From assembly GCA_040217195.1 (NCBI GenBank), contig JAVJNR010000008.1, positions 1-64,000 of the forward strand: 64,000 nucleotides of DNA. The letters run 5' to 3'. Position 1 is the first letter of the stretch. Each line of letters begins with the position of its first letter. A model generated the notes under the pieces. That model ran no database searches. It had not been told where the DNA came from and saw nothing but the letters and a program-made list of their open reading frames with translations. This document shows, piece after piece, positions 2,028 to 63,599 of this stretch. The position numbers were made by a program, and so were the translations under genes. Source of the stretch: Leptospiraceae bacterium (GTDB lineage Bacteria; Spirochaetota; Leptospiria; Leptospirales; Leptonemataceae).

Positions 2028-2954
2028 ATGTCCGGCACATTCAATAGAATATTCGTTACATTTTTGCTATCCATACTCTTGCTACTGGGGCCATCCTGCA
2101 GTGTGCTCTTCTGGAAGCCCGTTTCTCAAAGCGTAGATGCACGGTGGGCCAACAGCCGGGTCTATGAAGTATTGCTACATTTTGAAACCAGAATGAGCTG
2201 GAATCCCTGGAGTCAGGCAGCCGTAAATCGTAACTATAGCACCGAAATTATACTTCATGCGGTTCGAAACGGTCAGGTTGAAGAATCTAGATCTCTGATA
2301 ACATTTGAAGGCTGGGTCCTTCCAGAGTCCTTTTATCCCTACGCTCGGGGTTTTGTTATGCAAAGGGGCACTTCGGATCAGCTGGGCGAGGGCAAGCGAG
2401 AAGTCTATTCCATCAATGTTGCATCCGACAGAAAATCGGCCACCGGGAAGATACTGATTGAGCCAGAAAGACAGATCCAGGGCTTATTCGTAACTCCGGA
2501 TGGGCGGACTCTGGCTCTTTTTACCAGTGATGCGGACCCGTCCGAGCCCGGTGGAGAGATTCATTATGCCTTTTATTCCCTGGCAGGAACCACGGTGCAC
2601 AAGGATCCTGTCTTACTCTCAGACGGTTCCTTTCCTTTTGAGGGAGCTCCCGGGTTGCCTGAACTTACCTGGGGAAATGGCATGGATCGAGTCTATGCTC
2701 GATTGCCCGCGGTGGTTCTTGAAATTGAAGCATCCACGGGTGAAATAAGGGATGCTGAAAGATTTCCCGCCTGTTTCGACATGGTCAGGGTTCCTCCCTT
2801 TGTAAGCGCTCAGGGATTTCGATTTGCCAGAAGCGAAGAGGGACTGGCAATCATCGATGAAGGGAAGAAGCTCCCATCGCCTTTTGCTTTTGTTCCTATG
2901 ATCGAAGACATGGCCGGCATTTCCACCGATTGCAAGCAGTATCTGATTCGATAG
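2028..2954 (+). CDS. Hypothetical lipoprotein
   Basis: Hydrophobic N-terminus ending LLLLGPSC (spirochaetal lipobox-like). ATG 2028 preferred over TTG 1965. Confidence 0.6.
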   Translation: MSGTFNRIFVTFLLSILLLLGPSCSVLFWKPVSQSVDARWANSRVYEVLLHFETRMSWNPWSQAAVNRNYSTEIILHAVRNGQVEESRSLITFEGWVLPESFYPYARGFVMQRGTSDQLGEGKREVYSINVASDRKSATGKILIEPERQIQGLFVTPDGRTLALFTSDADPSEPGGEIHYAFYSLAGTTVHKDPVLLSDGSFPFEGAPGLPELTWGNGMDRVYARLPAVVLEIEASTGEIRDAERFPACFDMVRVPPFVSAQGFRFARSEEGLAIIDEGKKLPSPFAFVPMIEDMAGISTDCKQYLIR

Positions 2955-3337
2955 TGCGGCAATTGTTCTACAGCAATCCGGTTGTCGTCCAGGCAGCCAT
3001 TCCAGAACATCCGAAGGCCCTTCGGGTACAGCTACCGGAACCTCCCAACGGAGACCAGGAAGATCAGGCATTTATTTACCGAATCGAAGGAGCCCTGACA
3101 GGATTCTTCAACCGTTGTGGCCATGTTCGAGTGCCACTGGATCTGGATGATGGAAATTTCTTCGATCTAGAAGGAATGATTATTTGTAGGGTCCATGGGG
3201 CTAGATTCGATGAGAAGCAGGGCCATTGTTTGATGGGGCCTGCCTATACTGGACTGCATCGTCTAATACTTGAAGAAACCGAATCAGCAGTCCAGGTTCT
3301 TGGATGGGAAGGCCCCCTGCCTGCCAGAAACTATTGA
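2954..3337 (+). CDS. Rieske [2Fe-2S] domain protein
   Basis: NRCGH and CRVHGARF Rieske ligand motifs, then G.C..GP. GTG start overlaps the upstream TAG. Confidence 0.85.
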   Translation: MRQLFYSNPVVVQAAIPEHPKALRVQLPEPPNGDQEDQAFIYRIEGALTGFFNRCGHVRVPLDLDDGNFFDLEGMIICRVHGARFDEKQGHCLMGPAYTGLHRLILEETESAVQVLGWEGPLPARNY

Positions 3338-3379
3338 TTTTCCTCTTTACTTGCAGCGCGTACCCTTTCTTTGAAAGGT

Positions 3380-6121
3380 ATGGACAGTTCTATTCTCTAT
3401 GGTGACCAGGCCCATCAACTTGAAGAGCTCTATGAAAGGTATTTAAACGATCCGTCTTCAGTAAGCTCTGACTGGGCTCGATTCTTTGCAGACCTGGGGA
3501 ATGGACGGGCAGGCTCCAATGGACAGTCGGTAGCAGCCTCCGCTGGCTCCGGAGTCGTTTCCACTGGTATTGCCGGAGAGCGCCGCAAGGCTCAGTCAGT
3601 TCAGCAACTGGTTTTAGAATATAGAAGACAGGGATATCTGGCATCCAGACTGGATCCTCTTGGACTTGTTCAGCCCGATCGAAGTCGTCTGGAGCTCACT
3701 CTCTATGGTCTTACCGAGGCCGATCTAAACGAATCCTTTGAATCTGGAATACCTTCCCTGGGAGCCAGACCCTTGAAGGAAATCATAGATCATTATGAGA
3801 GTATCTATTGCGGTTCTATAGGATGTGAGCACTACTATATTCGTAATCGTGCCGAAAGAATGTGGCTGCAAGAACGGATAGAGTCTCCGGAATTCAATGC
3901 TCCTCTGGACAAATATACCAGGCTTCGATTATACGAAAAGGTATATCAGGCAGAACACTTTGAACGTTTTCTTGCTACTAAATACGTGGGGAAGAAACGA
4001 TTCAGCCTGGAAGGCGGCGAATCCTTAATACCTCTTCTAGATACTGCCATTGAGCGAGGCGGGGAAACAGACCTGGAAGGAATGGTCATTGGAATGGCTC
4101 ACCGGGGGCGATTGAATGTTCTGGTGAATGTCCTGGAAAAACCCGCAGGACTTATCTTTGCCGAATTTGATGAGAACTACAATCCAGAGACTCTGGATTA
4201 TGCTGATGTTAAATACCATCTTGGTCATTCCAATCGTAAGATGACCCGTAGCGGTCGAGAAGTGGCCCTTTCTCTTCTGTTCAATCCAAGTCATCTGGAG
4301 GCCGTAAATCCAGTGGTACTGGGAAGCGTTCGCGCCAGACAACGGGTGAACCATGACGAGGAACGCAAAAAGTATCTTCCTGTACTGATTCATGGCGATG
4401 CGGCCTTTATTGGTCAGGGCGTTGTGGCTGAATCCTTGAACTTTATGAACCTCCAGGGGTATCGCCTGGGCGGATGCTTGCATATTATCGTCAACAATCA
4501 GATCGGATTTACTACAGTTCCTTCTGAATCACGCTCCACAGCCTTTGCCACGGACCTGGCCAAGGGATTCCAGATTCCTATTTTTCATGTCAATGGGGAC
4601 GATCCGGACGCTGTATTTCGTGTAGCTCGTCTCTGTATGGATTATAGACTAACCTTCGGTAAGGATGCCATAATCGATCTAATCTGCTATCGCAAACTGG
4701 GACACAATGAAACCGATGAGCCGGCATTTACTCAGCCCAGGATGTACGATAAAATCAAGAATCATCCATCCGTGGCCACTCTGTATGAAAAGAAAATTGG
4801 TCGCAGCGAAGAGATTACAGAGGATGAAATCGAGTTCATCAAGAATGGAATCAACGAAGGACTGGAGCAATCCTTCAAAAAGGCCCGGCAATCCAATCAA
4901 AGAATGCAGGTAGATACACTTCGTGGAGTCTGGTCAGACTACACCCATGGCGAATTGGATTCAGAACCGGAAACCAGGTTGCTGGCAGAGCAACTGGAAA
5001 GAGTGGGCGGGGCGCTCACCACTGTACCTGAAGGATTTAATCTTCATAAGAAGCTGGGCAAACTGGTGGATCTTCGCAGAAAAATGATTTCAGGGCAGCA
5101 GGGTATTGACTGGGGTATGGCGGAGGCCCTGGCTTTTGGTTCTATCCTGGAAAACGGTCATGATATTCGTATGTCTGGCCAGGATGTTCGTCGAGGCACC
5201 TTTTCGCATAGGCACGCTGTATTTACTGATACGGAGAACGAAAATCTGTGGATTCCATTGAATCAGATCTCAGAAAAACAGGGCACCCTGGATATTCATA
5301 ATTCGCCGCTGAGCGAATACTCTGTGGTAGGCTATGAATATGGTTATTCGCTGAGTGATCCCCATGCTCTTGTAATATGGGAAGCGCAATTCGGTGACTT
5401 CGTTAATGGTGCGCAGATAATCATTGATCAATTTATCTCCTCCTCTGAAGTGAAGTGGTATCGATTGAGCGGCCTTGTGATGCTTCTGCCCCATGGGTAT
5501 GAGGGGCAGGGCCCGGAGCATTCCAGCGCACGCCTTGAGCGCTTTTTGCAACTCTGTGCGAAGAATAACCTTTACGTTGTGAACTGCACCACTCCGGCCC
5601 AGTATTTCCATCTGCTGCGCAGACAGATCCTCAGTAAAACGCGTCGACCATTGATTGTAATGACCCCCAAGAGTCTATTGCGACATCCCATGGCAACATC
5701 CAGCCTGGACGATATCAAAACCGGTCTGTTTGAGGAATTGCTAACCGATGATCGGGCCGGAAAGGACAAGGTACTTTTATTCTGTTCGGGTAAGATCTAT
5801 TACGATTTGATAAAATCAATGGAAGAAAGAGAGATAGAGGATATCTCATTGAATCGTCTTGAGCAGATGTATCCGTTTCCAGAAAAGGACATTCAGGATG
5901 TATTGAAAAAAAGCAGTGCCGGTATTGTGCGATGGGTCCAGGAGGAACCGATTAATCAGGGCGCGTGGCAGTTTGTGGAAGATCGATTCAATGCACTTCT
6001 TACGGATAAACGAATACAGCCTGTGGCCCGTCCAGAATCTCCTTCGCCGGCCGCCGGACTTCACAGTATTCATGCTTCGGAACAGCAGGATATAATGGAC
6101 CGAGCTCTTTCCTATAAATGA
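3380..6121 (+). CDS. sucA: 2-oxoglutarate dehydrogenase E1 component
   Basis: KRFSLEGGE, GMAHRGRLN, HGDAAF..QG (ThDP), NNQIGFTT, WEAQFGDF, PHGYEGQGPEHSS motifs. Confidence 0.97.
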   Translation: MDSSILYGDQAHQLEELYERYLNDPSSVSSDWARFFADLGNGRAGSNGQSVAASAGSGVVSTGIAGERRKAQSVQQLVLEYRRQGYLASRLDPLGLVQPDRSRLELTLYGLTEADLNESFESGIPSLGARPLKEIIDHYESIYCGSIGCEHYYIRNRAERMWLQERIESPEFNAPLDKYTRLRLYEKVYQAEHFERFLATKYVGKKRFSLEGGESLIPLLDTAIERGGETDLEGMVIGMAHRGRLNVLVNVLEKPAGLIFAEFDENYNPETLDYADVKYHLGHSNRKMTRSGREVALSLLFNPSHLEAVNPVVLGSVRARQRVNHDEERKKYLPVLIHGDAAFIGQGVVAESLNFMNLQGYRLGGCLHIIVNNQIGFTTVPSESRSTAFATDLAKGFQIPIFHVNGDDPDAVFRVARLCMDYRLTFGKDAIIDLICYRKLGHNETDEPAFTQPRMYDKIKNHPSVATLYEKKIGRSEEITEDEIEFIKNGINEGLEQSFKKARQSNQRMQVDTLRGVWSDYTHGELDSEPETRLLAEQLERVGGALTTVPEGFNLHKKLGKLVDLRRKMISGQQGIDWGMAEALAFGSILENGHDIRMSGQDVRRGTFSHRHAVFTDTENENLWIPLNQISEKQGTLDIHNSPLSEYSVVGYEYGYSLSDPHALVIWEAQFGDFVNGAQIIIDQFISSSEVKWYRLSGLVMLLPHGYEGQGPEHSSARLERFLQLCAKNNLYVVNCTTPAQYFHLLRRQILSKTRRPLIVMTPKSLLRHPMATSSLDDIKTGLFEELLTDDRAGKDKVLLFCSGKIYYDLIKSMEEREIEDISLNRLEQMYPFPEKDIQDVLKKSSAGIVRWVQEEPINQGAWQFVEDRFNALLTDKRIQPVARPESPSPAAGLHSIHASEQQDIMDRALSYK

Positions 6122-52323: not shown

Positions 52324-53439
52324 ATGGATTTCATCCATGGGGCGGGCATTGCTCAATGTATTCTTCTGGCTGTCTACTTCCTCCATAAGAGGAAGGAGCC
52401 CGGAAATCTGTTGGAATCAGTCCTGCTTCTGATAGTGGCCGCCACCATCGGCATTGGCTACCTGTATGCTACGGGGCTTGTACTGAAATGGCCTCACCTG
52501 GGCCGATTTGGCTTCACTTTCATGTCCCTGATTGGTCCGCTTTTTGCGCTTTCGATGAAAGCCCGGGAAAGCAGAGGAATCCAAAAATGGGATTCACTCT
52601 GGTTTATTGTTCCTCTGGGTGTTACTGTATATCTAATTCCATTCCATCTTTCTTCTGTGGATGAGAAGATGAGATACCTGCGAGAAGATCTGGTAGAGAT
52701 TCATCTGGATTGCGTGATCATTCTGTATCTGGCATTGTTTAATAACCTCTTTTCTATGGGCCATTCAATGCTGTCTATGTACCGATGGGAAAAAACCAGT
52801 TCGAACTTTTCGAATATTGGAATTAGCATGGGTGCCAGAGCTTACTACTGGATACCAATTTCATTCTTGTTAATTGCAGCTTCCTATTCAGCTTTCGATC
52901 CCAACGTATTGAACTCAGGTCTTTTTTCCGCTGCCGGTTCTTTGATTGTTCTACTCAGGGCCTATGTATTGCTCTACAATAGAGAGACGTCTGGCGAAAA
53001 TCATGCGATGTATCCGCCAGAGTTGCGTTATAGAAAGAATTTACTGCCAGAGGATTTGGTGCAGCAAAAAGGTCAGACCATTTCCGAGTACCTGGATGAA
53101 GAAAGCCCTTTTCTGGAACCGGACTTTCAGCTACCGCAACTTGCAAAGGCGGTGAATCTGAATACAGTTCAAGCCTCGCAGATCATAAACCGATATTTCA
53201 AATGTTCCTTTATCCAACTAATTCAAAAAAGACGGGTGGAACATGCTGTAGATCTTCTGCGGCAAAGAGATGAATCCTTCTCGATTCTGGATATTGCAAT
53301 GGAAAGCGGCTTCAATTCCAAATCTTCTTTCAACGCTTCATTTCGCAGAATACACGGTCAGTCTCCCAGTGAATACAGAAGGTCAAAACAAAACGATATG
53401 ACAGACTCTGGCCGCCCGGTCCGAGGGACTCTCGAATAG
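52324..53439 (+). CDS. Membrane-anchored AraC family regulator
   Basis: About 7 TM N-domain; C-terminal IA.ESGFNSKSSFN..F....GQSPSEYR. Confidence 0.92.
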   Translation: MDFIHGAGIAQCILLAVYFLHKRKEPGNLLESVLLLIVAATIGIGYLYATGLVLKWPHLGRFGFTFMSLIGPLFALSMKARESRGIQKWDSLWFIVPLGVTVYLIPFHLSSVDEKMRYLREDLVEIHLDCVIILYLALFNNLFSMGHSMLSMYRWEKTSSNFSNIGISMGARAYYWIPISFLLIAASYSAFDPNVLNSGLFSAAGSLIVLLRAYVLLYNRETSGENHAMYPPELRYRKNLLPEDLVQQKGQTISEYLDEESPFLEPDFQLPQLAKAVNLNTVQASQIINRYFKCSFIQLIQKRRVEHAVDLLRQRDESFSILDIAMESGFNSKSSFNASFRRIHGQSPSEYRRSKQNDMTDSGRPVRGTLE

Positions 53440-53443
53440 AGTC

Positions 53444-54028
53444 TTATCTACCTGCGAAATAGGATCTTACATTTTGAATTATGGCCGGAGCTTCGGTCTC
53501 CATTCCGTACTCAATGAGCCAGTCCGGTACCAGAGATAGGCCCGGATCAAACCTCACCCGATAAATCATCAGTGCTCCCTGACCATGGGGATGCAACCTC
53601 CAGGCTCCTTCATTCACCTTGATGCTTCCATCGATTCTCTTCCAGGAAATCGCATGTTTGGATGGAAAGAACCTGGTTTCATTCAAGGACCATCGATCCT
53701 CCAGAGGCCAGGGAAAGGCCAGCACCGAATAGAAGTGATACAGATTTCCTTTACGGTATCTCTGTTCATTTCTCTTCACTTTGGGAAAAAGTCGATGTAC
53801 CAGGGAAGGGTCCGTCAGGGCCCGGTATATTTCTTCTGGTTTTGCATCTATATATCCTACCACCGTAACAATGCCCAGGCTACCGCCTTTTCGAACCAGG
53901 CTTTTTCTGATTTCCTGTCCAGCAGGCAGAGGATTGATATTTTCCGGCTTCAAGGAATCCGGCTCGATGGCCGGCAACGAAGCAGTTATAAATACCAGGA
54001 TGCAAAAAGCTCTAGCTAACATGACCAT
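53444..54028 (-). CDS. Secreted SRPBCC/START-like lipid-binding protein
   Basis: Signal peptide; FPWPL.DR, W....G......G.W.L and DPG..VP.W motifs. Confidence 0.8.
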   Translation of the reverse strand: MVMLARAFCILVFITASLPAIEPDSLKPENINPLPAGQEIRKSLVRKGGSLGIVTVVGYIDAKPEEIYRALTDPSLVHRLFPKVKRNEQRYRKGNLYHFYSVLAFPWPLEDRWSLNETRFFPSKHAISWKRIDGSIKVNEGAWRLHPHGQGALMIYRVRFDPGLSLVPDWLIEYGMETEAPAIIQNVRSYFAGR

Positions 54029-54270
54029 TATTTTAGCTATCTCTATTTCATATTTATGTCGGATGGATTAGATTGGCGTGGCGAAAATGTAGCCGACATC
54101 TGGACTGCTCCAATCTGCAATGTGCATCCGGATGGTCTACAGCCACTCTCTTGGATAATAGTCTATAATCTTCAGTCCCAGTTCGGGTATAGAATGGGTT
54201 GTAAATCCGAATCCTGTACATCCATTTTTATAATAGATTGATTCCAGAGGTTGGTACAGGCAAATACCCC

Positions 54271-55392
54271 ATGCGACGCGTTACCCTGGACCGTCTTAAG
54301 CAGGTCTTCTTTTTCACTTTGTATTTTTGTACGGTCTCACTGCTTTTGTTCTTCAACGATGCCTACATTCGCACAGCTCCGGATCTGCAGCAGATAGGGC
54401 CCTATTATCCTTACCAGAATCTTTTGTCCTACCTGGCCGGAGGCCTGTTCGGGGGATTAATGGTGGCCATATTTGAGCTTTTCATTCTGGGCAATCTATT
54501 CAAAAAGTACGGGCTTCTGGTTCTTGGAGTAGGGAGGGGCCTGTTTCTGGTATTGCTTTACTTTATCATGAGTCTTGCACTATCATTTGGCTATAATTGC
54601 ATTATCACAGGTCTACCGCCCTATCACAGTGAAGTTCTATCCTCTGTATGGATCTATATGACTGGACCGGTCCTGCTAATTAATCTGGTCTTCTATTCTG
54701 TCTTTGTTATCATTCTTATCTTCTTTCATCAGATCATTGATCTTGTAGGCCGCGGCGTACTGGGCAAGTTTCTATTTGGAAGATACAAGGTTCCAGCCGT
54801 TGTGGATAGGACCTTTTTGTTTATGGATATGAATGATTCCACTTCCATCGCAGAAAGGATCGGGCATGTTGCCTTCTTTGAGCTGATGCAGGACTTTCTG
54901 GTCGAGGCCGGTGTGGAAATCCGGGAGCATGGAGGGGAAATCAACAAATATGTAGGCGATGAAATCATTGCTCTGTGGAACATTGATCAGGGTGCGCGAA
55001 ATGGACTGGCTCTTAAGGCACTGCTTGCCATAAAGAAGAGGCTGGAATCAAAATCAGGATATTTCGGAGAAAAGTACGGAGTGGTGCCGGATTTTAAGTC
55101 TGCACTTCACATAGGTCCAGCCATGGTTGGCGAACTGGGAGACTGGAAAAGAGAGGTTGCTTTCATGGGGGATTCAATGAATACAACGGCCCGGATCCAG
55201 GGGGCCTGTAAAAAGCTGAAGGCGCAAATCCTGGTAAGCGAAGATTATTGCAACGCACTGATCGATACTACAAGATATAGGCTGGAATTTGCCGGAAAGG
55301 GAAGATTGCGAGGTAAAGAGGCCCCGTTGAGTCTGTACCGAGCTTCATCTCTGGAGGCCTGGCCGGCCATGCCAGATGCCGGTGAAAAATAA
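54271..55392 (+). CDS. Membrane class III adenylate/guanylate cyclase
   Basis: 4 TM helices; FMDMNDST, KYVGDE and GDSMNTTARIQ motifs. Confidence 0.92.
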   Translation: MRRVTLDRLKQVFFFTLYFCTVSLLLFFNDAYIRTAPDLQQIGPYYPYQNLLSYLAGGLFGGLMVAIFELFILGNLFKKYGLLVLGVGRGLFLVLLYFIMSLALSFGYNCIITGLPPYHSEVLSSVWIYMTGPVLLINLVFYSVFVIILIFFHQIIDLVGRGVLGKFLFGRYKVPAVVDRTFLFMDMNDSTSIAERIGHVAFFELMQDFLVEAGVEIREHGGEINKYVGDEIIALWNIDQGARNGLALKALLAIKKRLESKSGYFGEKYGVVPDFKSALHIGPAMVGELGDWKREVAFMGDSMNTTARIQGACKKLKAQILVSEDYCNALIDTTRYRLEFAGKGRLRGKEAPLSLYRASSLEAWPAMPDAGEK

Positions 55393-55439: not shown

Positions 55440-56162
55440 CTATTGCAATTCTACGTCAGCGATGAGGGGAAGATGGTCTGAAGCGATTCGGGCCAGTCCA
55501 GAGGAATGTCGTAATTGCCGGTGGCCAGCGAGTGGGCCCAGAAAAAGGATTCGATCCAGAGAAATAAAAGGAAACCTGGCCGGAAATGTGGGACTGCTGA
55601 TCCATTGACCATGGAGGTTATTGCGAATATACCGCAGTTGTGTAGAGAAGGGCCACCAGATGTTTAAATCTCCCAGCAGGAATGCATGACTGCTCGCCGC
55701 TTTTCTTAGCTGCTTTATTCGTGCAACCAGACGAAGGATTTGCTGCCAACGTTCGCGGTAGCCCAAACCCAGATGAGTGGCATAAACCTGAATTCGGAAG
55801 TTTCTGGCCATTGAGCCAGGCAATAGGGAGCAGTCCAGTTCGCAATGCAGCATTCCCCGAGGCTCTCGATTTCTGTAGTTTAGTATAGTTCTTCCGTGGT
55901 TCTGGAGCGGAAAGCGGCTCAAGATGGCATTTCCATAGTAACCAGGACCGGTGGGTCCTGCTACAAAGTGCAGCCCCTTTAGACGTGCAAGCCTCTGGAA
56001 CTGCTTTCTACCATTGGTTTCATCGCCCAGATCACCCACTTCCTGAAGGGCTATGATGTCTGGATTCATTTCTTCTATTACCTGCACAATCCGATCCATG
56101 GAATGAATCCCATCCCGACCAACTCCTCCGTGGATATTGTAAGTTGCTATGCGAATCTTCAT
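55440..56162 (-). CDS. Endonuclease/exonuclease/phosphatase family protein
   Basis: TYNIH, LQEV, GNAILSR, THL, GDLN, LDRI and SDHLP motifs. Confidence 0.92.
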   Translation of the reverse strand: MKIRIATYNIHGGVGRDGIHSMDRIVQVIEEMNPDIIALQEVGDLGDETNGRKQFQRLARLKGLHFVAGPTGPGYYGNAILSRFPLQNHGRTILNYRNREPRGMLHCELDCSLLPGSMARNFRIQVYATHLGLGYRERWQQILRLVARIKQLRKAASSHAFLLGDLNIWWPFSTQLRYIRNNLHGQWISSPTFPARFPFISLDRILFLGPLAGHRQLRHSSGLARIASDHLPLIADVELQ

Positions 56163-57680
56163 TCATTCCAGGGGCAGAATGTCTGCCAGGACCTTTTGCA
56201 GCTCAAGAGGTTTTTCCGGATCTATGGAGTCCTGTGGAATCACTGCATCGAGAAAGGGATCCGTCTCTGTCTTTAATGGAATTAGTGTTCGGTCTTTCCC
56301 GCGAAAGCGACTTATGGTTCCTGCAAGGCTATCTTCCTGCAATGATTTCTGGATAGATTTCGAATCTGTTCCCAGATGTTCCGAAAGCAGTCGAACCAGG
56401 TAATCACAAATGCCTTGCTCGATGCTGTCCGCTCTGGAATCTCCTATTGCTTTCGATGAGCCTTCCATGGATTTTTCGCTCCGGGGCCGGGCAAGATTTG
56501 AATCCAGGGCAATGCTGCATTCTGTATCCAGTCCCATGGAGCGGTTGCTCAGATTGGTGGAACCTACGAAAGCAATTCTGTTGTCCACTACCATGGTTTT
56601 AGCATGCACAAATATATCCTCACCTTTGATGGATGGATAATAAATGTAGAGCCGACCATAAAGATCGGATTCTCGGAGTCTTTGTACAATTCGATGTCGC
56701 AGTACTCCCATGGTTGCCTCCTCAAGCCAGCCGGGGCATTCATGGGGAGTTACGATTACTAATTCTGGGCCCTCCGAGGCAGATAGCCTTTCACAAAGGG
56801 ATTCGGCGATGGATGTAGATGTAAGATACTGGTTTTCTATATAGATATAATCCCGAGCACTGGAAATCGCTTCCTTGAGAAATGCTTCGCTTTCTCGCAC
56901 TTCCGGCCTATTGTCGAACGGCGGATCCGTGCGGATAATACCCACGTTTACATCCCTCCAGGTCGAAGGAACCTTCTCTGGCCAGATGTCCCGGGTCGTG
57001 GGCGGCTGAAGCAGGTTTCCAGTGGCTCGCATCCAGCGATTTCGAGCCAGTTCTCCCAGACATCTGGCAGCTTCTCCGGAAACCATGGCCTGAATATCAT
57101 GAAAGGAATTGTAGGATTCTCCGTCCGGTCTATTCCGACCCGGGCCCTGGGGAAGATGCATGGCAGTATCCCAGCGCTGCCCGGTAAGATCGATTCCTCC
57201 GGCAAAGGCAATGCTATCATCAATTACTACCACTTTTTGATGATGGGAAGCGCCTGGAGGATGATTATTATCAAATTGAAAATCCAGACGATTACTCGCT
57301 TCCCAGAAAAGCTTAATGCTTGCCATCGCTTCCCGTTCCAGTGCATAGATTACGGAATAGTCCCAGTTCAGTATATGAATGCGAAGATCCGGTGAGCTTT
57401 CCAGAAGCTCATTTAGAAAGGCAAGTAGGGTGATGGAGTTTCCAGGCAATGGTTCCGGTGCATGAGATAGTGTACGTTCTTCTTCGCTCATATCTGCTTC
57501 CCGGTTGAGCAACAGACGGCTGTCCAGATCCCATCCAAGAATCAGGATGGACTTTTTGGCCAATCGGGCAGACTGCATAAATGCATTATAATAGGAAGCT
57601 GCATCGATGAGAAATTCCAGCCTGGTTGCGGATGCAATATGCCAGGCAGTCTTTCCCTCTTTTATGACAGGTTCAGACAT
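56163..57680 (-). CDS. Phospholipase D family protein (two HKD motifs)
   Basis: HHQKVVVID...GGIDL, YIENQY and VHAKTMVVD...GSTNL motifs. Confidence 0.92.
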   Translation of the reverse strand: MSEPVIKEGKTAWHIASATRLEFLIDAASYYNAFMQSARLAKKSILILGWDLDSRLLLNREADMSEEERTLSHAPEPLPGNSITLLAFLNELLESSPDLRIHILNWDYSVIYALEREAMASIKLFWEASNRLDFQFDNNHPPGASHHQKVVVIDDSIAFAGGIDLTGQRWDTAMHLPQGPGRNRPDGESYNSFHDIQAMVSGEAARCLGELARNRWMRATGNLLQPPTTRDIWPEKVPSTWRDVNVGIIRTDPPFDNRPEVRESEAFLKEAISSARDYIYIENQYLTSTSIAESLCERLSASEGPELVIVTPHECPGWLEEATMGVLRHRIVQRLRESDLYGRLYIYYPSIKGEDIFVHAKTMVVDNRIAFVGSTNLSNRSMGLDTECSIALDSNLARPRSEKSMEGSSKAIGDSRADSIEQGICDYLVRLLSEHLGTDSKSIQKSLQEDSLAGTISRFRGKDRTLIPLKTETDPFLDAVIPQDSIDPEKPLELQKVLADILPLE

Positions 57681-57728: not shown

Positions 57729-59894
57729 TCAAGCGCTGAGCGAAGCTTCCTTGTTACGAAGCAATTCTTTCATCTTGCGTCCGGTGGGATGATCTGGTTT
57801 TTGCTGATTGGCTCGAGCCAGTAAAGTTCGGGAGCGTTCAAGATTTCCCAGTAGATAGTGAACGTTGGATAGATGAATTGTATTTGGAAAGAAATCCGGA
57901 TTTCGCAGAAAAAGTCTTTCGCCCAGGTCAGCACTTTCGCGTACTCTGCCCAGCATTTTGGCACAGAAGGTAGAGACCCTCAAAGCATCGGATAGAGAAG
58001 GATCCAGTTGCAACGCTTCCAGAGAATGGCGATAGGCTTCATGATAACTCTGTAACTGGTAAGCCTCCAGAGATTGTTTGTGCAATTCTCTGGCCAGTTT
58101 TGATAGATTGGGAACGGAGTGTGCCAGACATTTTAGATGCAAAACCGACAGGTCATCGGTTAATTCACCTCTGGCAAGCAATGCCTCCATCAGGTCAGTT
58201 GGGTCTCCGTCCACTTCTTCTACGATTCGAAGAAATAGATTCTCATCTTCGTTCATGTATGAAGAACCGGCGGAATCCGGAAGCATTATATCGTCTCTGC
58301 CATCGGAGCCCATAATCAAACAATCGCCGGGGCATAGAGCCTGGATTGTAATTACTATATCGCTTTGCTGACTCTGGAATCCTAGCTTGCGATAATGGTA
58401 GGGATCCGGAAGAAATCGAGCTTTTCCCTTCCTGTATAGAACTGGAAGCGGATGTTCTGCGATGATGTAATAAAGAGTGCCAGAAGATTCATCAACCAGG
58501 GCGAGGTTCACCGACATTAGCATGGAGCTGTCGAAGGAATGAAAAACGTCGTTTAATTCCAGGAAGGCATGCTTGAGCCATCTTTCAGGACTGTATTTCT
58601 GGAGTACCGGGTTCTTTCTAGTTCGCTTGATTATGGAGGTAAATACAGAACCGCAAACCAGTGCTCCGCCTGCACCCTGCATGGACTTTCCCATTGCATC
58701 TGCATTGAACAATGCAACATGAGGCCGATTCTGCAGAGTCAAACTATGGGCTGTGGCCAGGTCGCCACCAAGTTCCTCCTTCCAGTGGCGAAAGGAAAAG
58801 GTCTTTTTCTGATGCGCAATGCATTCAATTTTATGATTCTCAGAGTGAAAGTCAGGCTGATTCAGTGGCCTAATAAGCAATGATGTGAGAAAATAGTCCC
58901 CGTCCTGTTGCTTCTTAAGAGACTGGATCCGTTTTAGAGCCTGACGTCTCTGTGCTTCACTGGAAATGCTTCTGGCCATGAGCTCCAGAATTTCCTGGTG
59001 AAATAGCTCGAATGGAGCTCCCCCCGGTTGTCTGGAAAAAAATGCGATTACCGCGGGAGTGTCTTCCTTCAGGGAGACGGGACTGCCTACCCAGAATGTA
59101 AATCCAGCATCTTGCATCTGATCGGCATTGAAGGTTACGGTACTATTCCTACTGATTACCTCTTCCATTTCTTTGCTGAATTCTGTGGAATCATCCAGCA
59201 CTTCTGTCTTTTGAATTATTTCGACAGACTCTTTATCCTTTTGCAGAAGGATGCCGCCATCCATTTCAAAAATTCTACATCCAGTCTGCAGATAATCCTG
59301 GAACAGAGCTTCAAGAGAAGAATAATCCGTAACGTTAAGTCGATGGATTTCCTTTAAACTTGTAGAGAAATGATCTATCTCTTCGGTGGCCTGAAGAATA
59401 AGCTCCTCTGCCTGTTTTCGCTCCATTTCCTCTGCGATTCGAGGAGCGATAAGAGATAGTATACCGGCTATTGTTTCTTTGTTTACCAGTGGTCGATCAA
59501 AGAACACAAGAATTGCTCCAGCGCATTGTCCATAAGGATCTATTAACGGAGCGGTAATGGCACTCTTATGATCGCTCAATGGTGCCACGGCTCCCCGCAG
59601 CTGTCCTTCCGTGAGTGTACCGGATTTCCCTTCCAGAAGTGCTTCAAAGACTCCTTCAAGCTGGATTTTCTCCGGCAAGGATTCCAGGGGATTGCCAGCT
59701 CGAACCTGCAATTCCGTGGCGCCCGGAGCCAGTTCCCCGATTATTACAGATTTGGCCTCCAGTTGCTCGCGCAGCGCTGTAGTTACGAAGCTGGAGAATT
59801 CCTCACCGGGTGGTGGATTGAGAAGTTTTCCCAGAGCATCGAGCAATTGGTGTTGGTCAAGAGCCTGCACCTCAATCCTGCTATGGCATTGCAT
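57729..59894 (-). CDS. SpoIIE/PP2C phosphatase with two N-terminal GAF-like domains and C-terminal TPRs
   Basis: GGD, DAMGK, SDG.DD and TDDLS metal motifs; GAF-like APL....G.I and GSPV...A.IAF segments; TPR-like helices ending PDHP. Confidence 0.88.
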   Translation of the reverse strand: MQCHSRIEVQALDQHQLLDALGKLLNPPPGEEFSSFVTTALREQLEAKSVIIGELAPGATELQVRAGNPLESLPEKIQLEGVFEALLEGKSGTLTEGQLRGAVAPLSDHKSAITAPLIDPYGQCAGAILVFFDRPLVNKETIAGILSLIAPRIAEEMERKQAEELILQATEEIDHFSTSLKEIHRLNVTDYSSLEALFQDYLQTGCRIFEMDGGILLQKDKESVEIIQKTEVLDDSTEFSKEMEEVISRNSTVTFNADQMQDAGFTFWVGSPVSLKEDTPAVIAFFSRQPGGAPFELFHQEILELMARSISSEAQRRQALKRIQSLKKQQDGDYFLTSLLIRPLNQPDFHSENHKIECIAHQKKTFSFRHWKEELGGDLATAHSLTLQNRPHVALFNADAMGKSMQGAGGALVCGSVFTSIIKRTRKNPVLQKYSPERWLKHAFLELNDVFHSFDSSMLMSVNLALVDESSGTLYYIIAEHPLPVLYRKGKARFLPDPYHYRKLGFQSQQSDIVITIQALCPGDCLIMGSDGRDDIMLPDSAGSSYMNEDENLFLRIVEEVDGDPTDLMEALLARGELTDDLSVLHLKCLAHSVPNLSKLARELHKQSLEAYQLQSYHEAYRHSLEALQLDPSLSDALRVSTFCAKMLGRVRESADLGERLFLRNPDFFPNTIHLSNVHYLLGNLERSRTLLARANQQKPDHPTGRKMKELLRNKEASLSA

Positions 59895-61140
59895 TCATGC
59901 GCTTCACGTCCGCAGTTGCCAGTTCCTTTCCCATGGTTCTGCACGAAGTCTGTTGCGCCTGAAAACTCTGATCGCTTTGAAATAGCTCCTGGTAGTAATC
60001 TTCGGTGAGCTCCGGTTTTGCGCAGATATCGCCATGGTAGAGCAGGTTCATGACTCCTGCTGAGCCACCGGTGAACAAATAGCTTCTGGGATGTGCAGAG
60101 AGAGCAAATGTGCGAAGGTAATGGTTGGACTCATAGTCACCTTCCACATTCATCTGCAGGCTTTCATTCGGATTGAGCTGCGAAATAGACCAGTAGCCCC
60201 ATCCAAAAGCATTGGCCACTGCCACAATGCCGCTAGCCCAGTCCTCTCTGGTCTTGCATTGAGGTTCAATCATACCGTACCATTCATCCGACAGCATGAT
60301 ACCACCGAATGTGTTAAAGGCACAAACATGGCCTGCTTCCACAAATAGGTCCCGGGCCAGGTCCGGTTCTCCGGTGGCTTCGGTAATCTGCTTCGTGGTT
60401 TCATAGCTAATGTAATTGTAATAATTGGCAAAATGTCGGGTCAGAATAACTCCGAAAGCCGGGATCAGTCCATCGCTTCCACCTTCCAGGGGAATGCCAC
60501 GTACGGCGCTGGTAATACCGGCCTCATCCACGTTGGTGCTGATTCTTCCTGGCTGATTGGATGTCTGAATTGTTACTCCGGTTCCTGGAGAGATGGGAAT
60601 TACCGGACAATCGGGATTAACATCGATCTGGAATTCATTTTCATTATCGCCCATGCTAAGGCATTTACTTTGATGCACGATAAAGTGGCCTGGAGCTTTG
60701 TAGTAAGCGGCTGCCATGGCTGCCTGGATGAATCCACAGGTGAAATAATCCACAGGCTTATCTCGTTTCCCCCATTTCTCTTTCCATCCATGACTGTAAT
60801 GGGTGAGTGGCGATTGAACGGTACCTCCATTTTCGCTTACCGAATCGAATCCGAGGAGGCCAAAGCCCAGTTGCGTGTAAATACCTTCCGCTGCTTTTAA
60901 GCGATCCACCGGATTTCGGAGTTCTGCATGATTGCGAAACAATACATGCAGCATGGAATGTACCGCCACAACTCCGCCTACCCGCAGAATTGTTTCTACA
61001 TCAACATATTCGGATACATCCTCAATTGTTCGCTGCAGAAAAAGATTATAATGATTACAATGAAAGATCAATGGTTCGCCGCCGCTTACTGCCAAACCTT
61101 CTGCTTCCAGTGTTTTTACTCTGGCCTTGAATTTCTTCAT
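59881..61140 (-). CDS. Tandem V4R-like domain protein
   Basis: Internal duplication: HCNHYN/HFANYYN, LGFGLL/FGWGYW, KCLSMG/SCRTMG. Resembles the V4R small-molecule-binding fold. Confidence 0.75.
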   Translation of the reverse strand: MKKFKARVKTLEAEGLAVSGGEPLIFHCNHYNLFLQRTIEDVSEYVDVETILRVGGVVAVHSMLHVLFRNHAELRNPVDRLKAAEGIYTQLGFGLLGFDSVSENGGTVQSPLTHYSHGWKEKWGKRDKPVDYFTCGFIQAAMAAAYYKAPGHFIVHQSKCLSMGDNENEFQIDVNPDCPVIPISPGTGVTIQTSNQPGRISTNVDEAGITSAVRGIPLEGGSDGLIPAFGVILTRHFANYYNYISYETTKQITEATGEPDLARDLFVEAGHVCAFNTFGGIMLSDEWYGMIEPQCKTREDWASGIVAVANAFGWGYWSISQLNPNESLQMNVEGDYESNHYLRTFALSAHPRSYLFTGGSAGVMNLLYHGDICAKPELTEDYYQELFQSDQSFQAQQTSCRTMGKELATADVKRMNAMP

Positions 61141-61367
61141 CTCTGGGCTTCCTCCCCGTTCTTCTCCTGGATTTGTAGCTCTCTACCCAGCACCTGATGG
61201 GCTGCCTGAAGTATTCTTTTTTCCAGTTCCGGATTCTCAGGCGTATTTGGAGTAATTCGGGACAGGTTTACCCCCGCTTTTAGTCCAATCCTGGCTACCA
61301 GCAATCTGGCCTGAACTCCACTGGATTCTGCTACAATGGCATCCACAATGTTCTTCAATCTGCTCAT
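61137..61367 (-). CDS. Small helical protein (76 aa)
   Basis: 4-nt overlaps at both ends; RBS GGGAGG. Confidence 0.75.
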   Translation of the reverse strand: MSRLKNIVDAIVAESSGVQARLLVARIGLKAGVNLSRITPNTPENPELEKRILQAAHQVLGRELQIQEKNGEEAQR

Positions 61368-61729
61368 AGAGCCTCCCTGTTCCGTCTCTCCTCTAAATAC
61401 ATCATTCCCAGGCTGTACTCCTCCTGAAAGTCCGGAATCAAGGCCGCCAGATCTTCCAGTGCTCTTTCTCTGAAAATAAGTGAGAACTGCAGGGTAATAT
61501 GGTTTTTCTCAGGTATGCCGGTAACGGTAACCCAACGTCCTAGTTTCCCTCTAAAGAATCCTGTGGAGCCAGTTTCATGCACATGTAACTCAAGAAGCAA
61601 TTCCCGTAACAATGCCAGCGGAGGCAGTTCCTGGAATTCCAATCGAATCTTTACACCTCTTTGCGCGCAGGCATGCAACAGACAGAAATCCTGTATGGAG
61701 GGAAAGGTAAGTTGTCCGGTCTCTTTCAT
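61364..61729 (-). CDS. Hypothetical 121-aa protein, possibly Roadblock/LC7-like fold
   Basis: Stop overlaps the next start; apparent beta-beta-alpha-beta-beta-beta-alpha pattern. Confidence 0.6.
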   Translation of the reverse strand: MKETGQLTFPSIQDFCLLHACAQRGVKIRLEFQELPPLALLRELLLELHVHETGSTGFFRGKLGRWVTVTGIPEKNHITLQFSLIFRERALEDLAALIPDFQEEYSLGMMYLEERRNREAL

Positions 61730-61731
61730 CC

Positions 61732-61866
61732 CTATTTGTTTTGCTGATTAAGGATGTCCGTTATGATTTCAAAGCTATCGTCGATATCCTTTTTTAGACG
61801 ATGTTTGAGATCTTCAAATACCTGTATGAGCTGTGCTGTAATTTCTTTCTCTTCCTGGTTTTCCAT
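61732..61866 (-). CDS. Small 44-aa amphipathic helical protein (below the ORF-track cut-off)
   Basis: MENQEEKEITAQLIQVFEDLKHRLKKDIDDSFEIITDILNQQNK; stop lies 2 nt before the next ATG; TTGACC at 61939-61934 upstream. Confidence 0.55.
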   Translation of the reverse strand: MENQEEKEITAQLIQVFEDLKHRLKKDIDDSFEIITDILNQQNK

Positions 61867-62243
61867 TTCTGACGCCTGTTCTATATATTTCGCATGAGGA
61901 GCAGGATCAAGATCCTGAACCTAAAAAGCTATGGGTCAAGAAAAAACCCGAGAATACCCTGGAAACCGGAGCAATTTCTCCTGTTAGGCGGATTTCTCAT
62001 CAGGCGGTAATGTCAGAAGGTTAGAGTTAAGTGCGTATCAGCGTTGGGTGGGTCAGGAATGATCGGAGGTGCCTGTTGTTTCTAGCACAAGTTAACAATC
62101 GCTACACAGATTTCATTGAACATACGGCAATTGTTAATGCTCTTCAGAAGGAAGGTCTTTTAATGCTCCAGATGGATTCATTCTGGTGCGCGCTCTGTAT
62201 CAGGGATTCGCAATGACAATCTTTCACTTGTTGAAATATGAAT

Positions 62244-63599
62244 TTACTGGTTGCGGCCCAGGCGAATATAATTTCTAGTGTGAATCCCCACTGAACGAAA
62301 TAACGGTAGCAACTTCTGGCTCAGAGCTTCTGCTTTTCCGTTCTTTTTCAGCTGCTCGAACATGTCTTCTTCAGGTTCTACGCCTTCATATGTATACTCA
62401 GGATCATGAGCCACTGTCTCGGGCAGGGCCTCTTCCAGAAGACTATCCAGGTCCGATGCTGCGGATGCAGATTCCCCTGCTATTATGCTTCGAATGTAGC
62501 CAGGCTCTTTGTAGTCGTATTCTGCGTCATGGGAGTCATCGGCCAGTGCCTGGAAAGCAGGCCTGGTTTCAGCTCCGTTTCTATAATCATGCAACATCAG
62601 ATTTCTCTGAAAATTTTCCAGAGCAAGGTGACGATTGGTTAGTAATTGCACTGCATTGCTCTGGGGACCGCTCATGCCCACTGTATTGAGCAGGTTGATC
62701 CAGATCATTCCGGCCGATGAGCGAGATGGCATAACTGTGGCATGATAGGGCTGAGTAAGATCCTGGACGTAATGCAATCCCCATCCCAGGAATCGGTAGC
62801 CCCAGTAATCATGACCTGTTTTGAAAGCGAATTGTGCAAGTCTCAAGTATTGCAGGGCCCGGTACTGGGCAAAGGTCCGTTTCAGGAACCCCGCCAGAGC
62901 ATAGATCATCGCCGATTCGTGATAGAAACCCATATGAAAGGGGGCCTGACTGGAATATTCCAGTGACGGATTCCCGAATGGCTGAATTCCAAAACCGTAA
63001 TTCTCTGCCTCCGGTCCTTCATTATCCTCGAACAGTGCAATATCGTGGCCGTAATCCGGTTCATCGCTGGCAGATACCAGTACATCCCGGGCAGAAATGG
63101 CCGTGCCCGGTGCGGTTTCGCAGAAAGGGACACCTTTCAGATAATCCACTTCCTGTAAGAAGGTAATCTGCCTGTACGGAACACTTTTACAGCTTGCTGG
63201 AACATGGCCGGGCACATACTGGGCATAGTTCAGTAGCCGAGTTTTTTGATTGATTCGGATAGCCTTCAAGAAGGCAAGACGGATGTCCTGCGCTGCAGGA
63301 TCAAATGTCAGTGCGGATGGCATACCAGGGTAGGAAGGTATACTCTTGAATTCTTCTTCCATTGCTATAAGTGCCTGTTGCAGGCCCGGCCCTTCGGCGC
63401 GAAGAAAGCTTTCGAGAGACTCCACCTGCACTTTTCTGGATAGCGATGGCATGGAATCCGTGGCTGCATAGGTAAGTAACGTATGCTCCCACCAGGCAAG
63501 AGCTGGGGCAGGAGAAATTATGGCAATCAGGATGGGAACCAGACAGATTGCGCGAACGCTCCATTTAAAATTGGGCCAGGTAGATTTTGATTCTGTCAT
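62244..63599 (-). CDS. Secreted Zn-dependent phospholipase C / P1-nuclease-fold protein
   Basis: Signal peptide ending ALA then W(W)EH; DEPD, FHMG, LHYVQDLTQPYH and H..LE Zn ligands. Confidence 0.8.
   Translation of the reverse strand: MTESKSTWPNFKWSVRAICLVPILIAIISPAPALAWWEHTLLTYAATDSMPSLSRKVQVESLESFLRAEGPGLQQALIAMEEEFKSIPSYPGMPSALTFDPAAQDIRLAFLKAIRINQKTRLLNYAQYVPGHVPASCKSVPYRQITFLQEVDYLKGVPFCETAPGTAISARDVLVSASDEPDYGHDIALFEDNEGPEAENYGFGIQPFGNPSLEYSSQAPFHMGFYHESAMIYALAGFLKRTFAQYRALQYLRLAQFAFKTGHDYWGYRFLGWGLHYVQDLTQPYHATVMPSRSSAGMIWINLLNTVGMSGPQSNAVQLLTNRHLALENFQRNLMLHDYRNGAETRPAFQALADDSHDAEYDYKEPGYIRSIIAGESASAASDLDSLLEEALPETVAHDPEYTYEGVEPEEDMFEQLKKNGKAEALSQKLLPLFRSVGIHTRNYIRLGRNQ

Follow-up and report, generated by a model that had tools for sequence, protein, structure and literature searches.

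The window, i.e., the whole 64,000-nt stretch of DNA that we analysed, carries five consecutive minus-strand open reading frames, here called H (positions 61732–61866, 44 aa), C (61364–61729, 121 aa; P0002), S (61137–61367, 76 aa), V (59881–61140, 419 aa) and P (57729–59894, 721 aa if read from its first ATG). From H to P the genes are joined by a 2-nt gap followed by overlaps of 4, 4 and 14 nt. All five ORFs are confirmed as real genes with the spacing given in the first-pass annotation, and they act as a single block. The 14-nt overlap between V and P is valid only for the first ATG of P. Because P starts later in relatives, at a GTG 10 nt past the V stop in locus L003 and after a 7-nt gap in L001, comparison of these sequences indicates that P is probably translated from the GTG at 59870, which would leave a 10-nt gap after V. 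Upstream of the operon lies the previously noted sequence TTGACC (61934..61939, minus strand), which could serve as a −35-like element but is not followed by a canonical −10 at the normal distance. It is kept in both relatives examined (L001 and L003) at equal spacing to a downstream TGCRA block, with 39–40 nt separating it from a second conserved block, but a sigma-70 promoter scan called no promoter there.

The first gene, H, encodes an acidic, helical protein with no family in Pfam or NCBIfam. Compared with two relatives, synonymous changes (22 and 24) far outnumber non-synonymous ones (6 and 7), which points to purifying selection and, on this substitution pattern, marks the 44-aa ORF as a genuine gene. 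Homologs occur only in same-genus loci and in L004, where the H homolog immediately precedes S, V and the phosphatase gene, and the protein is likely a lineage-restricted adaptor. The idea that H is left over from the chemoreceptor that occupies this position in L007 was discarded, as a profile search of the loci revealed no similarity.

V was predicted by AF2 as two lobes forming one confidently predicted unit (pLDDT 97.3, pTM 0.95). The model is closest in fold to the phenol sensors PoxR (Z 17.2, rmsd 3.3, 180 aligned), MopR and DmpR (Z 16.0), followed by MJ1460 (Z 12.0) and Bet3 (Z 9.3). At the sequence level, PF02830 matched at E 7e-4, under the curated cut-off, and a PDB sequence search returned only MJ1460 (E 0.6). 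The two halves are homologous to each other (98.2%) and each has the V4R fold, so the earlier description as a tandem V4R protein stands and the model confirms V as a fused pair of XylR_N/V4R (MopR-fold) domains. Near-invariant residues in an alignment of 120 rows are H27, C28, H30, H114, H271, C273, W287, Y336 and E337; Cys28 and Cys273 are each present in 119 of the rows and are retained in four split V pairs adjoining chemoreceptors. V is likely the sensor of the system.

Two small proteins accompany V. The 76-aa helical protein S belongs to a family without a Pfam or NCBIfam entry, and an ESM Atlas search returned two matches, both under 0.8. Its gene lies no more than 600 nt from V in 51 of 56 locus clusters with enough flank, was top-ranked at every locus of a held-out test (55/55) and is naturally fused to V in three proteins (P0071, P0101 and L048/P0135); no second copy was found in this genome. 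S is likely a bound subunit of V. The 121-aa protein C is present in 40 of the 44 clusters whose flanks were long enough (34/36 in a held-out test). Profile comparison places it as a divergent member of an unnamed one-cysteine family (HHalign 82.6%, rising to 93.5% with more members, with the cysteine aligned; 60 shuffles reached at most 1.3%). On the family profile itself P0002 scored only 2.2 bits and ranked 13th of 133 frames, and the assignment is therefore based on the profile–profile matches and on a bridge through L007. The family cysteine is invariant (7/7, 36/36 and 10/10 rows) and corresponds to Cys21 of C, where the first strand of a predicted hairpin ends. No second copy of C was found in the genome by a search (A5) that also misses P0002 itself.

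The first-pass annotation had taken C for a Roadblock-like protein, a reading we abandon. No Pfam match, to PF03259 or otherwise, was obtained at E ≤ 1, and HHalign gave 0.16% against a Roadblock alignment of four rows, two Pfam-confirmed and two picked by eye. Roadblock/LC7 proteins follow the order alpha-beta-beta-alpha-beta-beta-beta-alpha, whereas the AF2 model of C (pLDDT 88.8, seven sequences) has the order beta-beta-alpha-beta-beta-beta-beta-alpha-alpha. Two fold searches with this model, which on their own would not decide against Roadblock, brought up nothing convincing (best Z 5.7, weak TBP/KA1-like matches) and no Roadblock chain among the matches listed. The ESM Atlas gave no usable match. 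Neither Pfam nor NCBIfam returned a SufE/TusA-type family match. C is a likely candidate for a sulfur carrier; its cysteine is invariant, and a class V PLP (cysteine desulfurase-like) gene lies within 3 kb of V in 12 of 63 clusters, though not at this locus.

P is a SpoIIE/PP2C phosphatase, as had been proposed (PF07228, E 1.4e-22, 81 bits vs. a gathering cut-off of 25). All four Asp motifs are kept (GGD, DAMGKS, SDGRDD and TDD) and recur, with some variation, in five linked homologs. Of the GAF-GAF-PP2C-TPR architecture named earlier, the PP2C domain is firm, whereas GAF and TPR gave weak Pfam hits (E 0.02 and 0.003). The GAFs are joined by a strongly conserved helix (residues 158–190); within the genus, identity is 100% in this linker and 82–84% in PP2C but 52% in GAF1 and 46–55% in GAF2. 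Since the GAFs diverge far more rapidly than V, S, H and the catalytic domain, they make poor candidates for the ligand site. The genome has 17 SpoIIE genes, P among them, as well as 20 STAS matches elsewhere and RsbW-like ATPase matches; no STAS or kinase gene lies inside the operon. A PP2C tree did not resolve the branching.

The distribution of the genes among close relatives indicates that they were lost together. V, S and the N-terminus of P were all found in three of six same-genus relatives and were all absent from the other three. In two of the latter the flanking genes abut, with gaps of ~414 nt (G037) and 65 nt (G039), and in G037 a broken relic of the phosphatase TPR tail persists. 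The five genes were thus lost as one block. Recent horizontal gain was rejected as an explanation, since GC and GC3 match the flanks, the short H gene excepted. Within the order, occurrence is patchy (12/156 genomes).

Comparison across bacteria identifies V, S and C as a widely conserved three-gene cassette that forms the core of the system. The phosphatase is a local output and one of several, with kinases and chemoreceptors the commoner neighbours. MCP genes adjoin the cassette in L007, L015, L029, L092 and L182–L185, histidine kinases in L034, L057, L060, L103 and L106, and CheB/CheR in L097. L007 has the gene order MCP-C-S-V and falls in the same V clade as this locus (SH-aLRT 99 in a quick tree of 69 rows, fragments <330 aa left out), as do L008, L009 and L028, which have no signalling gene directly downstream. 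A docking GAF common to the kinase outputs was looked for and not found (HHalign 0.8% and 15.9%). Of the 12 clusters with a desulfurase near V, 11 also have C, and the gene occurs in three of five split-V spirochaete genomes, each time directly adjoining C or V2 and C; at the split loci, no S was detected. Where 1.5 kb of sequence was available downstream, only 8 of 43 clusters have a desulfurase near V. Other neighbours are rhodanese, MsrAB, hemerythrin (two loci) and ODP. The cassette is not always complete: in the Acidithiobacillus/Acidocella group, V occurs with neither S (0/9) nor C (0/7), and L009 has V without either. The earlier interpretation is supported in part. The pattern that it proposed to check, with small genes staying beside the tandem V4R gene and a changing output, is borne out, its choice of a phosphatase rather than a kinase or chemoreceptor holds as the local output only and does not define the system, its Roadblock component is not supported, and its emphasis on hydrophobic ligands is weak.

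We tentatively favour, at slightly less than even confidence, a reading of V-S-C as a soluble, cysteine-based sulfur or redox sensor that would likely switch the RsbU/SpoIIE-type phosphatase. S would, with high probability, bind V as a fixed subunit. C might, about as readily as not, take persulfide sulfur from a cysteine desulfurase and pass it to V, where Cys28, Cys273 and nearby histidines would hold a sulfur-containing cofactor (a small Fe-S centre or a persulfide). Since a cassette-type desulfurase was not found in this genome with nine queries (best match 24–30% identical), a housekeeping desulfurase would supply the sulfur. Probably, the state of the putative V site would then set the shape of V-S, and the complex, perhaps via H, would act on the helix between the GAFs and change phosphatase activity. 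Dephosphorylation of STAS proteins in partner switching is established for the RsbU/SpoIIE family, and the phosphatase would accordingly act on one of the genome's STAS anti-anti-sigma proteins. A precedent for redox-active cysteines in a V4R domain is provided by MsvR (PMC3729527). OrpR was dropped as a precedent for a V4R Fe-S site because its cluster sits in a PAS domain. Against an Fe-S centre, two cysteines would be a small number for a classical Fe-S cluster.

The first alternative, which we judge unlikely, is that V is a MopR-like sensor of a small hydrophobic or aromatic ligand, with structural or metal-binding cysteines and C as a non-catalytic accessory. The phenol sensors are the closest folds, the invariant aromatics W287, W314 and Y336 could line a pocket in the C-terminal lobe, and PMC2253512 regards V4R domains as probable binders of hydrophobic ligands whose signalling runs in cis or in trans. 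However, identity of V to the phenol sensors is only 12–14%, and the invariant cysteine of C and the recurring desulfurase neighbour would be left unexplained. The emphasis of the first-pass annotation on hydrophobic ligands is weak; the invariant cysteine in the C family, Cys28 and Cys273 in V, and the desulfurase neighbours favour cysteine or sulfur chemistry.

Equally improbable in our estimate, V-S could be an enzyme that, with sulfur from C, makes or breaks a small sulfur-containing molecule sensed by the GAFs or by other neighbouring receptors, following the logic of RsbQ-RsbP. The invariance of His, Cys, Tyr and Glu in V is enzyme-like, and the interchangeability of unrelated outputs would follow from a diffusible product. 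Moreover, ATC hydrolase, a relative of the V fold, cleaves a C-S bond (PMC5847659), and V4R systems with a ligand-making partner enzyme are proposed in a preprint (10.64898/2026.10.19.760177). Yet the GAFs of linked phosphatases are poorly conserved, with 17–26% identity between genera and the low within-genus values given above, unlike fixed-ligand receptors, and no substrate-supplying or transport gene recurred among 111 neighbours scanned.

We regard it as distinctly less probable that the cassette is independent and the phosphatase a mere neighbour sharing its transcript. Nine genomes of genus g33, in none of which V was found, carry a similar GAF-GAF-SpoIIE-TPR gene. It lies alone beside nuoA/nuoB at four of five inspected loci, and the phosphatase can thus exist without the cassette. 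V is linked to a SpoIIE phosphatase in only 4 of 73 clusters, P is one of many such genes in the genome, and V often has no adjoining signalling gene. Against this stand the persistence of the link in L004–L006 at ~50% protein identity, the location of all seven strong matches to the GAF-GAF region of P at V loci, and the joint loss of all five genes. An anti-phage or conflict module, suggested by the patchy occurrence and by V4R domains in conflict systems proposed in the same preprint, is very improbable, as PADLOC matched none of seven proteins at E ≤ 0.001, no effector gene is present, GC content is as in the flanks, and the neighbours elsewhere are chemotaxis and two-component genes.

The cysteine-based sensor reading can be extended, with less assurance still, to a general scheme in which C represents a new class of sulfur carrier charging a cofactor site between two unlike V4R lobes, and V-S a universal plug that bacteria from many phyla would connect to chemoreceptors, histidine kinases or, in Leptospirales, a partner-switching phosphatase whose GAFs have decayed to a docking scaffold. 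If true, chemotaxis, two-component and partner-switching pathways would have a soluble input device in common, two families without Pfam or NCBIfam entries would gain a function, and the V4R fold would be shown to hold a sulfur-derived cofactor. The signal input to some of the numerous SpoIIE phosphatases in Leptospirales would likewise be explained. This locus is suited to testing, with V as one chain and an output enzyme that can be assayed in vitro. The earlier statement that no system of such composition has been described agrees with our literature searches, which, with subscription journals and supplements outside their scope, found no published description of the cassette or of V4R with SpoIIE, a desulfurase or persulfide, and nothing evident on the V-S-C cassette in the literature on V4R and iron–sulfur.

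Among known systems, each lobe of V is most similar in fold to PoxR, MopR and DmpR (PDB 5fru, 5kbe and 6iy8; Z 17.2 and 16.0, rmsd 3.3, ~180 aligned), and the two lobes probably mimic a dimer of these sensor domains. V differs in combining two unlike lobes in one chain, in its low identity, in its new invariant Cys28 and Cys273 and in its dedicated partners S and C. The two sensor-fold lobes fill all 419 residues and leave no AAA+ ATPase, HTH or other DNA-binding domain. The zinc site of XylR/DmpR/MopR has the pattern C-E-C-C; the corresponding positions in V, placed by alignment and not by superposition, are D131, Q157, C160 and N168, with one cysteine left, and in the V family, again by alignment, the C, E, C and C of the pattern occur in 30, 20, 105 and 47 of 120 rows, respectively. 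MsvR (PMC3729527) resembles V in a V4R domain with redox-switching cysteines, and differs as a DNA-binding repressor that uses three conserved V4R cysteines; the invariant cysteines of V appear to lie elsewhere in the fold.

P resembles RsbU, RsbP and SpoIIE in having PF07228 with intact Asp motifs after sensory-type domains and a helix, in a genome with STAS and RsbW-like genes. Accessory activators of partner-switching phosphatases are known from the RsbT-RsbU and RsbQ-RsbP pairs, whereas the upstream partners of P are unrelated to stressosome or RsbQ proteins. A similar logic, in which a soluble sensor feeds different outputs in trans, is found in ODP (PF19583), an oxygen-binding di-iron protein that serves sensor-less chemoreceptors and that L086 encodes two genes upstream of V; in contrast to the cassette, ODP is a single protein of metallo-beta-lactamase fold without a one-cysteine partner. 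Finally, the SufE/CsdE/TusA-type proteins are sulfur acceptors of cysteine desulfurases and share with the C family small size, one invariant cysteine and, at some loci, a gene beside a desulfurase, whereas all 36 C-family members scanned lack a Pfam match to the acceptor families and the fold matches of C are limited to weak TBP/KA1-like ones.

The core of the system is three genes, encoding the tandem V4R protein (V), a small helical protein (S) and a one-cysteine protein (C). Our locus set comprised 26 genome loci and the 80 best of the 249 loci confirmed in metagenomes, grouped into 73 clusters, from which 10 clusters of the Acidithiobacillus/Acidocella type (seven forming one tree clade, three being short fragments) were set aside by hand. 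Of the other 63, 56 have enough upstream sequence to look for S, and 51 of these carry it no more than 600 nt from V; a one-cysteine protein of about 100-120 aa lies within 2.5 kb of V in 40 of the 44 with both flanks. The small genes travel with the tandem V4R gene while the output differs between loci, a pattern that the first-pass annotation had proposed to look for. The clusters set aside had S in 0/9 and C in 0/7. Because the S and C profiles came from the same loci, each member was held out in profile tests, together with all rows at least 35% identical to it; the expected ORF was then top in its own locus in 55/55 cases for S and 34/36 for C. Neither family has a match in Pfam or NCBIfam. 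S is joined to the V N-terminus in three proteins (P0071, P0101 and P0135 of L048), doubled in four or five (tandem S-S at L034, 1105-1635, and P0131-P0134) and fused behind another domain at L088 and L090; the L088 domain, present in two copies (3106-3717 and 4246-4857), looks like Roadblock by eye and has no Pfam match. An acidophile/proteobacterial V clade (L014, L017, L018, L070, L072, L074, L086) occurs without S or C near Roadblock, ODP, phosphonate-binding-type protein or PAS genes, and is possibly wired differently.

For the neighbourhood survey, 111 neighbours were hand-picked from about 219 candidates, mostly on V's strand, followed by 14 more. A gene resembling cysteine desulfurases occurs no more than 3 kb from V in 12/63 clusters (8/43 of those with 1.5 kb downstream), and C is present in 11 of these 12. 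Neighbours also include MCP genes (L007, L015, L029, L092), histidine kinase genes (L034, L057, L060, L103, L106), CheB/CheR (L097), SpoIIE (4/73 clusters), ODP (L086), true Roadblock (L070, L086), rhodanese (L089), MsrAB (L067) and hemerythrin-domain genes, the last directly upstream of V in the place of S (L039, 1250-1711; L053, 4504-4965). The V proteins linked to SpoIIE fall into a single clade with those of L007, where the order is MCP-C-S-V, and of L008, L009 and L028 (SH-aLRT 99, quick tree); the output was therefore swapped within the clade. Other V clades within the same taxonomic order show, both by eye, V followed by a PAS hybrid kinase (L132, 3423-6958) and V-S lying between an upstream SiaC-looking gene and a downstream GAF-looking one (L135, 3-2233). 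Within the phylum, V matches occur in 7/401 genomes, and in five of the seven V is two separate genes. Four of these five split pairs lie beside an MCP gene and are accompanied by C, three of the four by a desulfurase as well. Equivalents of C28 and C273 are retained in each of the four, and no S was detected at the split-V loci. A search of the window's genome found no cassette-type desulfurase (best match 24-30%); the genome has a SufS gene whose neighbour is SufU-like, as well as an IscS-like gene.

In the window, the five minus-strand ORFs lie where they were first placed: H, 61732-61866 (44 aa); C, 61364-61729 (121 aa); S, 61137-61367 (76 aa); V, 59881-61140 (419 aa); and the phosphatase P, 57729-59894 (721 aa from the first ATG). 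The reported 2-nt gap and two 4-nt overlaps are real, but the 14-nt overlap applies only if P starts at its first ATG; in relatives its start is later, matching a GTG at 59870. Codon comparison shows purifying selection on H: relative to L002 and L003 it has 22 and 24 synonymous against 6 and 7 non-synonymous changes. The upstream TTGACC is conserved in L001 and L003, and a consensus scan called no promoter there. The 4.6-Mb genome has one copy each of H, C, S and V, but 16 phosphatase genes paralogous to P, one of them split. The closest named V loci belong to Leptonemataceae and Spirochaetaceae MAGs (79-83% identity in V).

The five genes form a single block: of six relatives in the same genus, three have V, S and P's GAF-GAF region, and the other three lack all of them. 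In two of the three without the block the flanking genes are neighbours, with roughly 414 nt between them in G037 (92% complete) and roughly 65 nt in G039; a search of the third, which is 78% complete, did not recover the flanks. The G037 gap carries a broken relic of the TPR tail of P (residues 601-678, 45% identity; L189, about 2922-3155), and the block was therefore deleted there. Broken or rearranged loci were also seen: a GAF-GAF piece with a stop, then the C-terminal end of V (L134, 4154-5782, in G044), and a V-like gene in pieces (L133, 2646-3484, in G030). Upstream of the block, a conserved minus-strand gene (62244-63599) encodes a 451-aa protein with a signal peptide, no Pfam or NCBIfam match and, by eye, a WWEH...H...D...HY..D...P.H pattern, which we take to resemble zinc-dependent phospholipase C / S1-P1 nucleases. 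Where the block is absent this gene adjoins the PLD-family gene (PF13091, PF00614; minus strand), which overlaps a PF03372 endonuclease/exonuclease/phosphatase gene within 55440-57680, directly downstream of the block and outside it. Farther on (52324-55392) are, by eye, an AraC-type regulator, a START/SRPBCC-looking protein and a membrane adenylate-cyclase-looking gene.

The first-pass annotation was mostly right in its observations and wrong in calling the 121-aa protein Roadblock-like, a label contradicted by a score of 0.16% against Roadblock and a differing predicted element order. The protein is a divergent C. It matches the 36-row one-cysteine family at 82.6% with cysteines aligned (maximum 1.3% in 60 column shuffles), rising to 93.5% (E 2.4e-7) with 10 further members. 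The L007 member bridges this protein and the family: it is 32% identical to C of the window (E 2e-8) and scores E 8e-10 with an independent C-family profile, to which the window's C alone gives only 2.2 bits. The cysteine is invariant in 7/7, 36/36 and 10/10 rows and sits at the end of strand one in a predicted hairpin. Fold searches with C returned no clear hit, the top one being TBP/KA1-like at Z 5.7.

The proposed tandem V4R fold of V holds: an AF2 model from 120 sequences (pLDDT 97.3, pTM 0.95) shows two MopR-fold domains fused together, and the two halves are homologous (98.2%). The model matches the sensor domains of PoxR (Z 17.2) and DmpR (Z 16.0), both with about 180 residues aligned at 12% identity and rmsd 3.3; MJ1460, Bet3 and H-NOX come next. 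At the positions placed by alignment from what we take to be the V4R zinc pattern, V of the window has D, Q, C and N. The 120 V rows consist of V's best matches together with nine proteins from the loci, which biases them to near relatives; they keep H27 in 119, C28 in 119, H30 in 117, H114 in 120, H271 in 111 and C273 in 119, and W287, Y336 and E337 in 120 each. C28 and C273 would meet where the two lobes join.

Our preferred, still tentative, reading is that the cassette senses sulfur supply or oxidation through this putative Cys/His site and acts on P and a STAS partner switch. S would be a fixed putative subunit of V, and C would ferry sulfur from a desulfurase to the candidate site, whose state would report sulfur supply or oxidation; the V-S complex, perhaps via H, would then act on a conserved helix of P, and hence on the partner switch. 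Alternatively, V could be a hydrophobic-ligand receptor, as the PoxR and DmpR likeness and the presumed role of V4R domains as hydrophobic-ligand sensors, in cis or trans (PMC2253512), would suggest; with the conserved cysteines on the other side, we consider this unlikely. Redox control via V4R cysteines has been shown for MsvR (PMC3729527). It is likewise improbable that V-S is an enzyme producing a diffusible sulfur signal, a reading for which the C-S cleaving relative ATC hydrolase (PMC5847659) would speak.

The SpoIIE/PP2C assignment of P stands (PF07228 at 81 bits, cut-off 25; four aspartate motifs present), and the window's genome has 20 STAS and several RsbW-like ATPase matches. Within the genus, the GAFs of P are 52% and 46-55% identical, the catalytic domain 82-84% and the inter-GAF helix (158-190) 100%; in distant V-linked copies the GAFs fall to 17-26% and the helix to 48-67%. 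Against a functional link between cassette and P, nine genomes of genus g33 carry a P-architecture gene (E 1e-54 to 1e-65) without detected V, standing alone beside nuoA/nuoB at four of the five loci inspected (L145, L146, L148, L150, L152), and P could thus be a hitchhiking phosphatase. In the stand-alone copies the first GAF carries a conserved Pro-Cys motif that 6/6 V-linked copies lack, and the helix is 39-42% identical; this fits a change of input without demonstrating one. We hold hitchhiking to be quite improbable. A catalytic-domain tree of P and relatives left the branching without resolution. At L004 (1664-3520) a SpoIIE ORF reads through into part of a phosphoglycerate kinase where the contig ends, which is probably an assembly error; genes of this contig look leptospiral and its record is labelled Hydrogenedentota. 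Block base composition matches that of the flanks, and a defence role for cassette or block is scarcely credible.

The known functions of RsbQ/RsbP, SufE/TusA and ODP served as background for comparison. The literature searched, with subscription journals and supplements outside it, held no description of the V-S-C cassette, and PMC13714276 proved a false match. Other V4R systems occur with asparaginase or ParA in a preprint (10.64898/2026.10.19.760177), whose accessible portion lacks the words 'desulfurase' and 'SpoIIE', and the OrpR cluster sits in a PAS domain according to the available text of PMC8359166. P belongs to a known enzyme type. The V-S-C cassette, two of whose three families are unnamed, fits none of the described systems tested and is widespread and output-agnostic.
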